A stretch of DNA of 43,222 nucleotides from Acidobacteriota bacterium. Its GTDB lineage: Bacteria; Acidobacteriota; UBA4820; DSQY01. Positions 645 to 4,789 of the stretch are shown one piece after another; position 1 is the stretch's first letter, and each line of letters starts with the position of its first letter. The position numbers were made by a program, and so were the translations under genes. Where the stretch lies: contig JBMFSH010000023.1 in NCBI GenBank assembly GCA_049967655.1, positions 1 to 43,222 on the forward strand, written 5' to 3'. The notes beneath the pieces are model-generated. The model did not search any database. It had not been told where the DNA came from and saw only the letters and a list, made by a program, of their open reading frames with translations.

Positions 645-920
645 ATGATCGGTGTCCGGCTGGACAAAGAGACGGAAGACCGGCTCGAACGGTTGGCGAA
701 GGAGACGCGCAGGAGCAAGAGCCACTATGTGAAAGAGGCCATCGCCCAGTATCTCGCGGAGAAGGAGGACGTTCTTCTCGCCGTCGCCCGCCTGGAAAAA
801 GGCGAAACGCCGGTTTCCGCCGAAGAGTTATGGAAGAGCCTCGGTTGGGACCAACGGCGCGCAGCCGCGCCGAAGAAGCCCGTCCGCCGTTCCGCCCCGC
901 GCAAGAAGGCCGAGAAGTGA
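645..920 (+). CDS. Ribbon-helix-helix (CopG/RelB-like) antitoxin
   Basis: SD GAGGAGG, then ATG at 645. MIGVRLDKETEDRLERLAKETRRSKSHYVKEAI is an RHH pattern. GTGA overlap with the toxin gene. Confidence 0.85.
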   Translation: MIGVRLDKETEDRLERLAKETRRSKSHYVKEAIAQYLAEKEDVLLAVARLEKGETPVSAEELWKSLGWDQRRAAAPKKPVRRSAPRKKAEK

Positions 921-1195
921 AGCCCGCTTGGAGGGGCCTATGGGACCCTGAAACGGCCAAGGACTTGAGGCGCCTCGGCCGCCCGGCGGCGGAGCGCATC
1001 CGCGAGGCCGTACTTTCGCGCCTCACCAAGAACCCCCATCTCGGCAGTCCCTTGGAAAGCACTGCACGGTGGCCTCTCTTCCGTTTCCGCGTGGGCGACT
1101 ACCGTGTCGTCTACACCCTGCACGAGGAGGAGCTGGTCATCCTCGTCTTGCGAATCGGCCATCGCCGCGAGGTCTATCGCCGCCTGCCTGGATGA
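917..1195 (+). CDS. relE: RelE/ParE-family toxin
   Basis: GTG start coupled to the antitoxin stop. FRFRVGDYRVVY...LVLRIGHRREVY is the RelE C-terminal signature. Confidence 0.9.
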   Translation: MKPAWRGLWDPETAKDLRRLGRPAAERIREAVLSRLTKNPHLGSPLESTARWPLFRFRVGDYRVVYTLHEEELVILVLRIGHRREVYRRLPG

Positions 1196-1205
1196 TGCGC
1201 CCCCC

Positions 1206-1220
1206 GCCTGCTTCGCAGGC
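1206..1220 (+). terminator. Short GC hairpin downstream of relE, the likely IIC intron target stem-loop
   Basis: GCCTGC-TTC-GCAGGC, 13 nt upstream of the intron 5' end. No strong U-tract. Confidence 0.55.
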
Positions 1221-1233
1221 CCTCCATTCACTG

Positions 1234-2110
1234 GTGTGCCGGGCATGTTCAGCAGCTTGGGGGTGCAAGTCCCCTACCCAACCTGATGGAGGTGAAGGGT
1301 TAGCGAAGCGCAAGGGCGTCACCGTGAGGTGGGGTCTGAAGGAAGCGTGGAGCAAACGCGCGGGCCGATGGACAAGAACCAGATAAGGGGCCCATCTCCG
1401 CAAGCTGCGAAGCAGCGAGCGGGAGGGCCCTCCGGTGGAGGGTCCGATAGATGGGATTGCGTGAGCGCCGGACGAGCGGGCCAGTGACCGCGAAGTCCAT
1501 ATCCATCAAGGGCGCAAAGCGACAATCTGGCGGTAGTGCGCGGAAGGCGGCTGGACTTACCCCGGGAGGCCTGCGCCGTGTCCCGGAATCGGGACTGGGA
1601 AAGCCGCGAGGCTCTCCGATCGCGGTGCAGGAGTCAGCAGAGGGCATAGTAGGGGAGAGGTTTCCCGAAGGCCCGAACGGTGGGAGAGGCGAGTAGGACG
1701 CGGCCATGGCGGATGCAGAGCGGCGGAAAATCCGGGGTGACCTGACCTTCGAAGCGACGCTTGAGGGTGAAGCCCGAGGGCGCGTGGAGGGAAGGGCCGA
1801 AGCGGCTACCGCAGGGCGCGGGACCGAAAGCCCGGCGGAAACAGCGCGGCTCATGGAGAAAGTGCTGGCGGCGGAGAATCTAGGGTGTGGGCAAGCAACT
1901 GTCGGCGAGACCTGCCGGTAGCGCGCACCGCCCCTGGCGCATCAGCAAAAGCCCAGCATTAAGCTACGCTCTTCCCAACGCCTTCTTCACGAGACTCGGC
2001 CTGCCCTCTCTCGCACCGGGCTGAGCGCACAACTCACCGAACCGCCGTGTACGGACCCTTACGCACGGTGGTGTGACAGGGAAAGCCCACGAGGGCTTAT
2101 CTATGCCGAT
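1234..2110 (+). mobile_element. Group IIC intron ribozyme, effectively ORF-less
   Basis: 5' end GTGTGCCGGGCATG. Class C landmarks GTTAGC..CGCAAGGG..TCTGAAGGAAGCG, CTTACCCCGGGAGG and GAGTCAGCAGAGGGCATAGTA. Short D5 with CGC triad, GAACCGCCGTGTACGGACCCTTACGCACGGTGGTGT (2039-2074). D6 ends ...CTATGCCGAT. EBS1 region CAGTGA (1482-1487) is complementary to the 5' exon TCACTG (1228-1233). Confidence 0.93.
1706..2024 (+). pseudogene. ltrA: Internally deleted intron-encoded RT/maturase
   Basis: The N-terminal piece ends LMEKVLAAENL (typical IEP start). It is joined out of frame at ~1882-1884 to GVGKQLSARPAGSAHRPWRISKSPALSYALPNAFFTRLGLPSLAPG* (typical class C IEP C-terminus, stop 2022-2024). No RT core or YADD. 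Confidence 0.85.
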
Positions 2111-2192
2111 TGGGCAGAGAGGCCCTCCGGGAGCTATTCTGCGGGGCTGGCCGCGACCCGAATGGTCAACGGATCGGCTTAGTCGGCTGGGA

Positions 2193-4517
2193 TTAGGTGC
2201 GGAGATTGAGCAGGAGGTAGCCCCCGGCGCAGCCGAAGAGGATGGCCGGAGCCCAGACGGCCAGGGCTGGGTTGAGCCAGTCCATGGCGCCTACGGAGTT
2301 GAAGATCGCCATCATGACGTAGTAGGCGATGGAGAGGCCCAGGGCGATAGCCATGCCGTACAGCGAGCCTCGGCGGCCCGTTGCGAAGGCGAAGGGAAGC
2401 CCCAGCAGGAGGAGAATCAGGGGGGCCAGGGCGTCGGGGAGCTTCTCGTAGTAATCAACCACCTGCTGCCGCGACGGGTACCCCTTGGCTCGCAACTCGC
2501 GAATCAGGGCCTTGAGCTCCCGGGAGGAGAAGTACTGCCCCTCCAGGAAGGCCGGCGCCACGAAGTAGTGCAGTGGCAGGCCCAGTTGCCGGGTGCCCTT
2601 GGGCAGCTCTTTGAACACGGGTGAGCCACCGCGCCGCCAGCTCCATCCCTCTGTGAAAGCAAGGTCTCCGGGGTCGGAGCTGGGTGCGGGAAAGTGGGCC
2701 TGTTTGGCGAAAAAGCGCGAATCGAGCCTGAAGCGCTCGGGAGAGAAACGGTACTCCGAAAAGCCCTGGAAACTCTTGGTGCGCGAGTCGTAGTGGTTGT
2801 AGTGGAAGAGGACGTGGCGGTCGGGGGCGAAAAGCCAGACGTCCATGGTGCTGGAAAGGTTTCGGCCCACGAGTCCCTTGATGTGATCGCGCGTGGACTG
2901 CGCCCTGCGGCTCGTTCCAGGCACCACGGCCTCGCCCATAGCCCAGAGGAACAGGCAGGCCGCGGCGGCCAGGGCGAAGGCCGGAAGGCTGATGCGGTAG
3001 ACGGAGACTCCCGAGGCCTTCATGGCCAGGATCTCGTTGGTGCGCTCCAGTACCCCGAAGGTGACGAGGACGGTCATAAGGACGGCCAGGGGGACGAGCA
3101 TGACCAGGACGCCCGGGGATTGGTTGAGAAGATAGCTCCCCAGGAGCTTTAGCTTTTGGCTCCCGGTGATGAACTCCGAGAGGCCCCGTATCTCGATGAT
3201 CCAGTCCAGCAGGAGGACTGAGGAGCTGATGAGCAGGAAGGTCTTCAGCATCCTGGCGAGAAGGTACCGATCCAGGATAGGCAGCCCTCGGCCGGCGGCG
3301 ATTTTCGGCGATTCGGGCGGAGCCGCGCCGGAGGCCGCCTTCTCCTGGCGGGCCGGAAAGAGAAGGGCGAGGGGGCGCATCCAGGTCGGCGTCGTGATGC
3401 GGTCCCGCGTGGTCACCAGGAGGAGGCCCACGAGCATCAGCAGCAGGTCGGGCAACCAGGCGGCCAGGGAGGGGGTCAGCCGCCCCGCCTGGGCCATGTC
3501 GCCGAGGGCTGAGGTGAGAATCCAGTATCCCAGGAGCACGATGAGCGAGAGGCTGAAGCCGGCCCCCTTGCCGCCGCGGGTGTTGACCATGCCGAGCGGG
3601 ACGCCGATGAGCACGAAGAAGAGGGGCACCAGGGAGGCCGACAGCCGGCGGTTGATCTCGTAAAGCAGGGCGTAGCGCTGCCTCCGGATCAGGGCGGGAT
3701 CGCTCTCCTGGGGCGGCAGGTTCAGCGCGCCCAGGAGCTCGGCCGTGGAGTACTCCATGATCCCCTTCTGCGGGGGGCTGACCTGCCCCCCCTGGGTTTC
3801 GACGGTCAGGGCCTGTTCCCGGAAGGTGGAGGTCTGGACGGTGCCGGGTCGCTTCCGGTCGAACTGGACCGTCTCCCCGTCGGAGAGGAGGAACTGGAGG
3901 CTCTGACCGTCCGCCGAGCGGATGGCCCGGCCGTAATCCGCCAGGGTGAGCAGGTCCTGGGAGGGGCTCCCGTGCTGGAAGACTAGGATGTGCTCGTATC
4001 GGCCCGCCTTTACGTCGGCCCGGCCGGCGTAGAGCAGGACGCCCGGAATCCTGTCGAAGAAGACCCCCGGTCGCAGCAGCCGCACGACGTTGAGCCCCTG
4101 GCTCGCCTCCGACTGGATCTCGTCCGAGGCGCTGCGGCTGGCGGGGATGAGCCAGAGATTGATGGCCAGCAGCAGGAGAGTCATGACCGAGGCGAACAGA
4201 AGGGGCGAGGTCAGGAGCCGGGTGCTGGAGACCCCGCCCGCCCTGAGGGCGATGATCTCGCTGTCTCCCGAGAGCCGGCTGAAGGCGATGATGGTACCCA
4301 GGAGGAGTGCCACGGGGAGGGTGTAGCTGAGCAATCCCGGCAGTCCCAGGAGGAAGAGCATGCCCGAGGCCCCCGCCGAGAGCCCCTGCTGGATCACCAG
4401 GCTGGCCAACTGGAAGAGCAGGTTGATCAGGAACAGGAAGGAGTAAACCACGAGGCCGATCAGGAAAGGCCCCGTCATCTCCTTCAGCACGTAGCGATGC
4501 AGAATCTTGAGGTTCAA
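2193..4517 (-). CDS. lptFG: Fused LptF-LptG LPS export ABC permease
   Basis: Two tandem YjgP/YjgQ units (ILHRYVLKEM...DSEIIALRAGGVS and ILDRYLLARM...TNEILAMKASGVS). Likely TTG start at 4517 after SD GGAGG. Confidence 0.9.
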   Translation of the reverse strand: MNLKILHRYVLKEMTGPFLIGLVVYSFLFLINLLFQLASLVIQQGLSAGASGMLFLLGLPGLLSYTLPVALLLGTIIAFSRLSGDSEIIALRAGGVSSTRLLTSPLLFASVMTLLLLAINLWLIPASRSASDEIQSEASQGLNVVRLLRPGVFFDRIPGVLLYAGRADVKAGRYEHILVFQHGSPSQDLLTLADYGRAIRSADGQSLQFLLSDGETVQFDRKRPGTVQTSTFREQALTVETQGGQVSPPQKGIMEYSTAELLGALNLPPQESDPALIRRQRYALLYEINRRLSASLVPLFFVLIGVPLGMVNTRGGKGAGFSLSLIVLLGYWILTSALGDMAQAGRLTPSLAAWLPDLLLMLVGLLLVTTRDRITTPTWMRPLALLFPARQEKAASGAAPPESPKIAAGRGLPILDRYLLARMLKTFLLISSSVLLLDWIIEIRGLSEFITGSQKLKLLGSYLLNQSPGVLVMLVPLAVLMTVLVTFGVLERTNEILAMKASGVSVYRISLPAFALAAAACLFLWAMGEAVVPGTSRRAQSTRDHIKGLVGRNLSSTMDVWLFAPDRHVLFHYNHYDSRTKSFQGFSEYRFSPERFRLDSRFFAKQAHFPAPSSDPGDLAFTEGWSWRRGGSPVFKELPKGTRQLGLPLHYFVAPAFLEGQYFSSRELKALIRELRAKGYPSRQQVVDYYEKLPDALAPLILLLLGLPFAFATGRRGSLYGMAIALGLSIAYYVMMAIFNSVGAMDWLNPALAVWAPAILFGCAGGYLLLNLRT

Positions 4518-4789
4518 CGCGCCTCCCGGGAGACCATGGTACCGCCCGCCGCCCCTCGAACGGAAGGGAAGGTCCCGAATTCCGCGATGGGGGCGGGAAG
4601 GGGCTGGTCTGAGGGTGTTCGTGGGGAGGAACAGGGACACGGAGGAGCCTGGAATCTGGCTCCCATCGATGGTTTGGCGTCCCCCATCTCGTGTCTCGCC
4701 CTCCCCTGTCGTTTGACCGCCATGGACACCCCGCCTACACTGTTTGGGCACCATGTCCTTGAAGAGGGCCGGTGCTCAGGAGGATCGGT

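Follow-up and report, generated by a model that had tools for sequence, protein, structure and literature searches.

Positions 1234–2110 of the 43,222-nt stretch of DNA analysed here (the window, which is contig C23 of an assembly of 147 contigs and 3.14 Mb rated 99.3% complete) contain a bacterial group II intron of class C (IIC) that carries no open reading frame. Compared with its full-length siblings it has lost 1063 nt from the coding region of the intron-encoded protein (IEP), and it shows mismatches in domains V and VI (D5, D6) that are found in no other copy. The window copy is probably an inert relic, and the deletion that produced it appears to have occurred in situ. A separate, much more numerous lineage of short ORF-less introns is present in sister species.

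The intron and its full-length siblings

The following features define the element and its 5′ domains.

1234–2110, forward strand: ORF-deleted class C group II intron, 877 nt (Rfam; alignment to 1869-nt siblings)
1318–1555, forward strand: domain I core, RF02001 (group-II-D1D4-3), 59.7 bits, E = 1.4e-9, gathering threshold 32
1386–1458, forward strand: Y-shaped insert in domain I, about 70 nt (present or absent among siblings)
1595–1673, forward strand: domains II–III, RF01998 (group-II-D1D4-1), 53.2 bits, E = 6.5e-7, gathering threshold 35

As read from the sequence, the intron starts with GTGTG at 1234–1238 and ends with ...GAT at 2110. These ends agree with the 5′ GUGYG / 3′ AY boundary and are concordant with 12 5′ junctions and 17 3′ junctions of sibling copies. 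The domain I–III architecture recognised by the Rfam covariance models is that of a group II intron ribozyme. With RF01998 the window copy gives 53.2 bits versus 53.1–53.6 in four of five scored sibling copies, the fifth, a diverged G002 copy, giving 45.4. A looser scan of positions 1100–2300 (1.2 kb) places RF00029 (D5/D6) at 2040–2110 with 25.6 bits and E = 0.014, the gathering threshold being 40. The only frames at the element are short ones, 1706–1921 and 1887–2024, and the list of open reading frames holds no long ORF there.

An earlier reading of this DNA from the sequence alone had described the element as a miniature class C intron that lacks an ORF but has a 5′ GUGUG, domains I–III, D5 and D6, and had proposed a search with the Rfam group II models. 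All of these landmarks are in place, and the description is upheld both by the Rfam matches and by the alignment to full-length siblings; RF02001 and RF01998 score above gathering, and the D5/D6 match is the weaker one, RF00029 remaining below it.

The search covered the window's own genome and those of 60 relatives. Intron matches are found in 12 of these 61, the window's own genome included, and all three other species of the genus are among them. Full-length siblings of 1869 nt are situated at G010:C216:48159-50027, at G018:C406:19-1887 and in G003:C2, with an IEP frame of 459 or 457 aa. The window copy aligns end to end with these siblings save for two length differences, a gap of 1063 nt and the insert of about 70 nt in domain I; outside of these two, the ribozymes in G010 and G018 are 92–96% identical to that of the window. 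The full-length siblings have the GTGTG start, the EBS1 loop, D5/D6 and the position behind a hairpin in common with the window copy, but the latter is without the 1063 nt (residues 60–413) and displays private D5/D6 mismatches.

The domain I insert is absent from G010, G018 and both the full-length and the mini copy of G003:C2, and is present in G003:C70, G002:C145 and G009:C2 (alignment). Environmental contigs from metagenome runs skip 1385–1459. The insert folds into a three-way junction (MFE −42.7), and 5 of its 25 pairs show compensatory double changes relative to the G029 copies. The RF02001 score of the window copy, 59.7, compares with 78.2 in a sibling with the insert and 126–134 in siblings without it.

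Assignment to class C

The 459-aa sibling IEP shows the Pfam families RVT_1 and GIIM only and has no endonuclease domain. Its best solved relative is the GsI-IIC reverse transcriptase (RT) (PDB 6ar1), with 504.7 bits over the full length, followed by the E. rectale IIC maturase (7uim, 360 bits) and then by the IIC RT domains 5hhj/5hhl. Scores against other classes are 137 bits for LtrA (IIA) and 118 bits for TeI4h (IIB). Among characterised IIC introns such as GsI-IIC and that of E. rectale (6ar1, 7uim), the IEP family of the window copy is nearest to the GsI-IIC RT.

In D5, the triad C2043-G2044-C2045 (CGC) is aligned opposite the AGC of the RF00029 consensus. The presence of CGC in place of AGC as the D5 catalytic triad is a IIC trait. 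Taken together, IEP similarity, the D5 triad and the insertion behind a hairpin place the intron in class C as far as sequence comparison can indicate.

The insertion site

Three features are found at or pair with the end of the 5′ exon.

1206–1220, forward strand: 5′-exon hairpin GCCTGC-TTC-GCAGGC, 6 bp with a 3-nt loop, 13 nt before the intron (sequence)
1228–1233, forward strand: IBS1, TCACTG, last 6 nt of the 5′ exon, with 6 of 6 Watson-Crick pairs to 1482–1487
1482–1487, forward strand: EBS1 loop, CAGTGA, 6 hypervariable nt between conserved flanks

Upstream of the hairpin, a ParE toxin gene ends at 1195. Each of the 12 complete 5′ flanks in the family folds into a hairpin that ends 1–18 nt before the splice site, and in 9 of these 12 the z value is −2.6 or lower. 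The window hairpin is the weakest of the 12 (DNA fold dG = −6.1, z = −1.7 versus shuffles), is not distinguishable from shuffles by folding energy alone and, as it has no T tail, was left unflagged by a terminator scan. Although it conforms to the family pattern, it would not be convincing in isolation. Thus the hairpin noticed in the sequence-only reading 13 nt upstream is present, but its folding energy and the missing T tail do not set it apart; the more general expectation, that IIC introns insert behind hairpins, agrees with every complete flank in the family.

In the sibling alignment the EBS1 hexamer is the most variable spot of the ribozyme, with flanks conserved in all copies. Pairing was scored as the number of contiguous pairs with the last bases of the exon, counted from the splice site, and gave the following values.

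Window copy: 6
G010: 4 (also representing G018, whose loop and exon end are identical)
G003:C2, full-length copy: 6
G003 minis, three copies: 3, 3 and 5
G002:C145, diverged or truncated copy: 0
G009:C2, diverged or truncated copy: 0
G001:C144: 0
G001:C102: 1

The copies that look intact, those of the window, G010 and G003, keep the pairing, and the other four lack it. Non-cognate combinations of EBS1 and exon have a mean of 1.06 contiguous pairs (n = 84). G001:C144 and G001:C102 end inside a repeat of at least 17 copies, and loop and exon may therefore be mis-phased in these two. The G003:C2 value assumes that a mini interrupts the full-length intron directly behind its initial GTG; with the mini taken out, a GTGTGCC start stands behind TCCTTT, which pairs at 6 of 6 positions with the loop AAAGGA. 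The exons in front of the three G003 minis all end in GTG, which is complementary to the CAC at the start of the minis' own loop. The assignment of EBS1 to 1482–1487 is well supported, and the 6-bp pairing with exon TCACTG that had been read from the sequence is recovered in full at what proves to be a hypervariable spot in the family.

The most plausible course of events begins with a IIC intron that would have reverse-spliced into the DNA that follows a parDE toxin-antitoxin operon, at a point 13 nt behind the small hairpin; pairing of the EBS1 loop with TCACTG presumably guided the insertion.

Deletion of the IEP coding region

The deletion is delimited by the following features.

1706–1882, forward strand: IEP N-terminal remnant, codons 1–59, on the DIVa side of domain IV (tblastn)
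1881–1884, forward strand: deletion junction (gap between HSPs in G010 and G018; environmental contigs)
1884–2024, forward strand: IEP C-terminal remnant, last 46 codons at 1884–2021 and stop codon at 2022–2024 (tblastn, alignment)

Alignment to the full-length siblings places the missing 1063 nt between ...GAGAATCT (1881) and GGTGTGGGC (1884). IEP residues 60–413 are lost, that is, the whole RT core and the X/maturase domain. The N-terminal remnant has 88% identity to residues 1–59 of the 459-aa sibling IEP, and the same 88% is found for the remnant at the other end (tblastn); a Pfam search with the N-terminal remnant ORF matched no family. As 1063 does not divide by 3, the N-terminal and C-terminal remnants are out of frame with each other. 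In four metagenome runs, environmental contigs enter RT sequence past 1881 and reach 1884 out of RT sequence. The deletion and its breakpoints are thus defined by the siblings and by the environmental contigs alike, and the out-of-frame junction between codons 1–59 and the last 46, with the RT core gone and the ORF start region (DIVa side) retained, is as the sequence-only reading had it.

The two sides of the junction have at most 3–4 nt in common (alignment). After insertion, a single deletion of 1063 nt, most likely in place and with microhomology of no more than these 3–4 nt, would have removed the RT core and X/maturase domain and left an 877-nt ORF-less ribozyme shell. That the missing RT segment is instead an artefact of assembly, the real locus holding a full-length intron, is scarcely credible. 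The assembly is fragmented, and repeats of this intron family do break contigs. However, with so little sequence shared between the two sides of the junction a k-mer graph should offer no path across 1063 nt, the contig runs for 43 kb through both flanks, and no contig with the RT core of this family is found in the assembly.

Occurrence of the junction and of the IEP

In its own genome the junction 1881/1884 is found on C23 only, and among the 60 relatives' genomes no match crosses query positions 648–651. Exact junction patterns of 27 nt and 19 nt have no match in either genome_contigs or metagenome_contigs, scans that may omit records close to this genome, and a 24-nt pattern from the 5′ exon gave 0 exact matches in metagenome_contigs. 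No contig bridges the junction in four metagenome runs from three studies (X1, X2, X5 and X6, as contigs only), none of which is the source sample (best share of sampled words 0.22). These runs hold introns of relatives and not the window locus; the flanks 1100–1222 and 2125–2165 have either no cover or unrelated cover. Multiple copies with shared breakpoints, as in TeI3 or B.c.I7, were thus not found for the window junction in the data searched.

An intact cognate IEP was not found in the window's own assembly, a result that, given the fragmentation, is to be read as not found rather than absent. PF00078 and PF08388 match fragments only, at the end of C5, at the start of C14 and on the 510-nt C144. 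The sibling IEP (tblastn) finds only the window remnants, a relic on C5 and an unrelated sequence on C144 (41% identity). The C5 relic carries IEP residues 36–134 at 100% identity and then residues 214–376, is cut in the X domain and is fused to unrelated DNA. RT residues 135–213 of the window intron family are found nowhere in the assembly (tblastn). C14 belongs to a second intron family, with an IEP 36% identical, whose G001 counterpart shows RF02005 at 84.4 bits; RF00029 gives 37.3 bits at L009:570-646.

Further decayed copies in the genome, which favor the relic reading, consist of a 100-nt stub on C4, a copy with a domain I deletion on C68 and the C5 copy. C68 ends with 77 nt that are 100% identical to window positions 1507–1583; thus a second window-like copy exists, and its interior could carry the same junction, a point against the relic reading. 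C81 carries a 3′ end with an intact-looking D5/D6 (39.2 bits) and an IEP C-terminus, and could belong to an unassembled full-length copy. As the assembly is in 147 contigs and C68, C81 and C5 all end at contig ends, such a copy with an intact IEP could exist.

These observations bear on the main rival to the relic reading, in which the window copy would be an active non-autonomous intron that relies on the IEP of an unassembled or unbinned full-length sibling for splicing in trans and perhaps for mobility. C81, as the possible 3′ end of a full-length copy, is in its favor, as is the complete EBS1–IBS1 pairing, but insertion of a full-length ancestor at this site would account for the same pairing equally well. 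The junction, found once in all data searched, and the missing RT residues 135–213 stand against it, and overall we regard this alternative as unlikely. The sequence-only reading had raised mobilisation in trans as a possibility and had proposed BLASTN searches for copies with the same junction and for a full-length donor. None with this junction was found in the own genome, the 60 relatives, the two collections or the four metagenome runs, and the 147-contig assembly yielded only IEP fragments. With the private D5/D6 mismatches described below, the suggestion is not sustained for the window copy.

Changes in domains V and VI

The catalytic 3′ domains of the window copy are as follows.

2041–2072, forward strand: domain V; T2059, private to the window copy, breaks C2052-G2059, the middle pair of the 3-bp upper helix
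2074–2108, forward strand: domain VI, with bulged A2103 (alignment, fold)

G010, G018 and three G003 copies share one and the same D5-D6 sequence of 71 nt, and elsewhere these copies differ by 8–22%. The window copy has five changes in this segment (2059, 2089, 2097, 2100 and 2106), of which four are private; the change at 2097 is common to the C81 copy of its own genome, which has one difference from the five-sibling sequence. Position 2059 is G in all aligned siblings and in 14, 12, 1 and 8 contigs of the four metagenome runs. The private C2106 produces an A.C mismatch in the basal stem of D6, and A2089 converts the GCGA loop to ACGA.

The sibling D5 shows a canonical fold in which a 10-bp lower helix leads through an AC bulge into a 3-bp upper helix capped by a 4-nt loop. 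In the window copy T2059 gives a C.U mismatch, and the minimum free energy structure of the window D5 is without the canonical upper helix (−16.2 versus −18.8 in the sibling). For D5 and D6 together the values are −28.5 in the window and −34.5 in the sibling. The RF00029 scores parallel the folds, with 39.2–39.5 bits in five sibling copies against the 25.6 of the window, the siblings too being just under the gathering threshold.

Over the whole element the window copy has 18 private substitutions versus 24–34 in other diverged lineages. The whole-element count thus does not single out the window copy, and only the concentration of private changes in D5-D6 is informative. Some of the window-specific changes keep or restore pairs, e.g. 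CCAGAU/AUCUGG in domain I (alignment reading), which suggests that the window lineage was under structural constraint for part of its history. The D5/D6 mutations are expected to impair catalysis, but a single C.U mismatch need not abolish activity.

Loss of the maturase would have ended selection on the element, and the otherwise frozen D5-D6 would then have begun to drift, with T2059 breaking the D5 upper helix and C2106 mispairing the D6 stem as the outcome. At present the copy would most likely be immobile, a relic with poor splicing or none. An intron still served in trans is harder to reconcile with these mismatches, which have no counterpart in mobile siblings.

The mini-lineage and the orthologous locus

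A separate ORF-less mini-lineage of 640–735 nt has its own junction (query 605 joined to 789) and about 44 N-terminal codons left. Its members include a 642-nt copy in G003:C2, a 734-nt copy in G003:C70, and copies in G002:C145 and G001:C28. In G001 the mini junction is present in 17 of 17 retrieved 3′ ends, which lead into 17 different 3′ exons, 15 of them starting with T. The 5′ ends of G001 minis, about as many as the 3′ ends, are located at contig ends, and the copy number of at least 17 is a lower bound. In G003:C2 a mini is nested after nt 3 of the full-length intron. G003 has a cognate IEP; searches of G001 and G002, each rated 97% complete, found none.

It is the mini-lineage, not the window copy, that has the properties of a trans-mobilised ORF-less lineage. 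The general idea of such introns put forward in the sequence-only reading therefore holds for the sister-species minis, with their shared junction, and finds no support in the copy that prompted it. The minis do lend some weight to the possibility that the window copy is served in trans, as ORF-less relatives have clearly moved (all of the G001 3′ ends in different exons, and the nested copy in G003:C2), and the window copy retains the ORF start and the first 59 codons where the successful minis retain about 44. There is also some chance, though a small one, that the window copy represents a second, independent ORF-less birth in a miniaturisation-prone family, after that of the HYER-sized 640–735 nt mini-lineage.

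At the orthologous site, G002:C38 and G003:C43 have another gene beside the end of the lptFG-like gene, with no toxin-antitoxin (TA) module and no intron. In G001:C44 the same intergenic region is occupied by a mini-type intron, but its 3′ flank differs and the insertion is read as an independent one. In G001:C12 the TA module is present and homology stops near window position 1208. In the three sister species searched, no orthologous site can be defined, whether empty or occupied.

Comparison with known ORF-less introns

ORF-less bacterial group II introns, class IIC included, have already been described, and the window element is a further one. According to a 2015 review (PMC4424553), they are rare in bacteria and are nearly always found in genomes with related IEPs that possibly act in trans. 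Two precedents offer some support to the trans-served alternative. The T. elongatus intron TeI3 (Mohr et al. 2010, PMC2882425) is present in 17 copies with the same breakpoints, has ORF remnants on both sides, forms twintrons and was mobilised in trans experimentally. The window copy resembles it in having one domain IV deletion, N- and C-terminal ORF remnants and good EBS/IBS pairing. However, TeI3 differs in its 17 copies, its coexisting driver IEPs, its class and its En-containing IEP. The real analogue of TeI3 is the sister-species mini-lineage rather than the window copy.

The second precedent is B.c.I7 of B. cereus E33L, for which Tourasse and Kolsto 2008 (PMC2504315) report three near-identical ORF-less copies together with a complete copy. 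Like the window copy, B.c.I7 is a deletion derivative that retains only the ends of the RT ORF. In its copy number it is unlike the window copy, whose junction is single-copy and for which no complete copy is assembled in its own genome.

HYERs (Liu et al. 2024) are described in PMC11754743 and PMC12990946 as ORF-less class IIC elements with a 6-nt target recognition site that act as protein-free hydrolytic ribozymes. By analogy, the window copy might have been retained as a ribozyme of this type that cleaves RNA or ssDNA hydrolytically, its 6-nt EBS1 selecting the targets. Its class, the lack of an ORF and the 6-nt recognition loop are compatible with these descriptions. However, HYERs are compact (e.g. 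637 nt) and active without protein; the window copy has about 320 nt of dead ORF remnants and a mispaired D5, and its 877 nt contrast with a compact form of about 600 nt. It is also a single copy, was not found at the orthologous locus in the three sister species searched, and has accumulated 5 changes over the 71 nt of D5/D6, a drift about as fast as elsewhere in the intron. A HYER-like function thus appears highly improbable, and the relic reading is preferred.

Taken alone, the window copy is an ordinary decay product of a mobile element, of a kind that is invisible to gene callers. If it were still spliced by the IEP of an unassembled sibling, it would represent a snapshot of the first step of miniaturisation, with the ORF gone and the domain IV remnants untrimmed. 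One genus displays side by side a full-length intron, an early-stage ORF deletion (the window copy) and a mini-lineage that is trimmed and multi-copy. Together they form a natural series well suited to questions on the origin of non-autonomous IIC ribozymes and the identity of the driving IEP. Within this family the EBS1 loop is seen to change in step with its target, and one insertion is nested in another intron.

Mini-introns in sister species

ORF-less class C mini-introns of 640-735 nt, all with one common domain IV junction, are spread over three sister species, G001, G002 and G003. They were found at the following places:

G001: many contig ends (loci L136-L150, L040 and L017)
G003, contig C2: L030, positions 653-3159
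G003, contig C70: L012, positions 1501-2234
G002, contig C145: L015

The junction is present in 17/17 of the 3′ ends examined in G001, and 17 different exons adjoin these ends. No cognate intron-encoded protein (IEP) for the mini-introns was found in G001 or G002. On C2 of G003 a full-length sibling carries a mini-intron behind its nt 3, and this is a twintron-like arrangement.

Y-shaped module in domain I

Window positions 1386-1458, within domain I of the studied intron, form an RNA module that is Y-shaped and about 70 nt long, and intron copies that are otherwise near-identical differ in having or missing it. The module is seen again in G029, a genome from another class, where it lies within a 234-nt rod-like repeat (at least 6 copies, loci L130-L135) that displays a long closing stem and an MFE of −129.9. 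Compensatory double changes are found in 5 of the 25 pairs of the module, and a search of Rfam showed no match to it at E ≤ 1. The module is a candidate for a shared structural or protein-binding module; a piece captured from another RNA is likewise a candidate explanation.

Insertion site and possible target

The studied intron is situated between a toxin-antitoxin (TA) pair and the end of a convergent permease gene:

426-1195, on one side of the intron: RHH-antitoxin/ParE-toxin pair (PF05016, 59.5 bits)
2193-4754 (−): fused LptF/LptG permease, 853 aa (PF03739, 448 bits, two stretches)

The block of TA pair plus intron is absent from the corresponding place in G002 and G003. The 5′ exon, window 1215-1233 (…GCAGGCCCTCCATTCAC…), is similar to …GAAGGCCCTCATTC…, a motif with three copies downstream of a TA module in G001 contig C12 (L041). 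The window's genome has 6 occurrences of the core GGCCCTCATTC. The exon motif may belong to a small repeated hairpin family that serves as intron target.

Other intron pieces in the window's genome

Four more pieces belonging to the studied intron's family are present in the window's genome:

C5, 123101-123773: IEP 3′-truncated, with an in-frame internal gap
C68, 1-151: copy with some 190 nt missing from domain I
C4, 69738-69843: 100-nt 5′ stub, upstream of a tRNA cluster
C81, 3532-3660: 3′ end, D5/D6 intact-looking

At residues 36-134 the C5 IEP has 100% identity with its counterpart in G010 and G018, which belong to a different genus.

An unrelated second group II intron family is also present, at contig C14, 1-650 (L009), and in G001 contig C218 (L045). 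Its 441 aa IEP shows 36% identity to the class C IEP. RF02005 gives 84.4 bits in G001; D5/D6 give 37.3 bits at L009, positions 570-646, in the copy from the window's genome, which is cut off by the start of C14.
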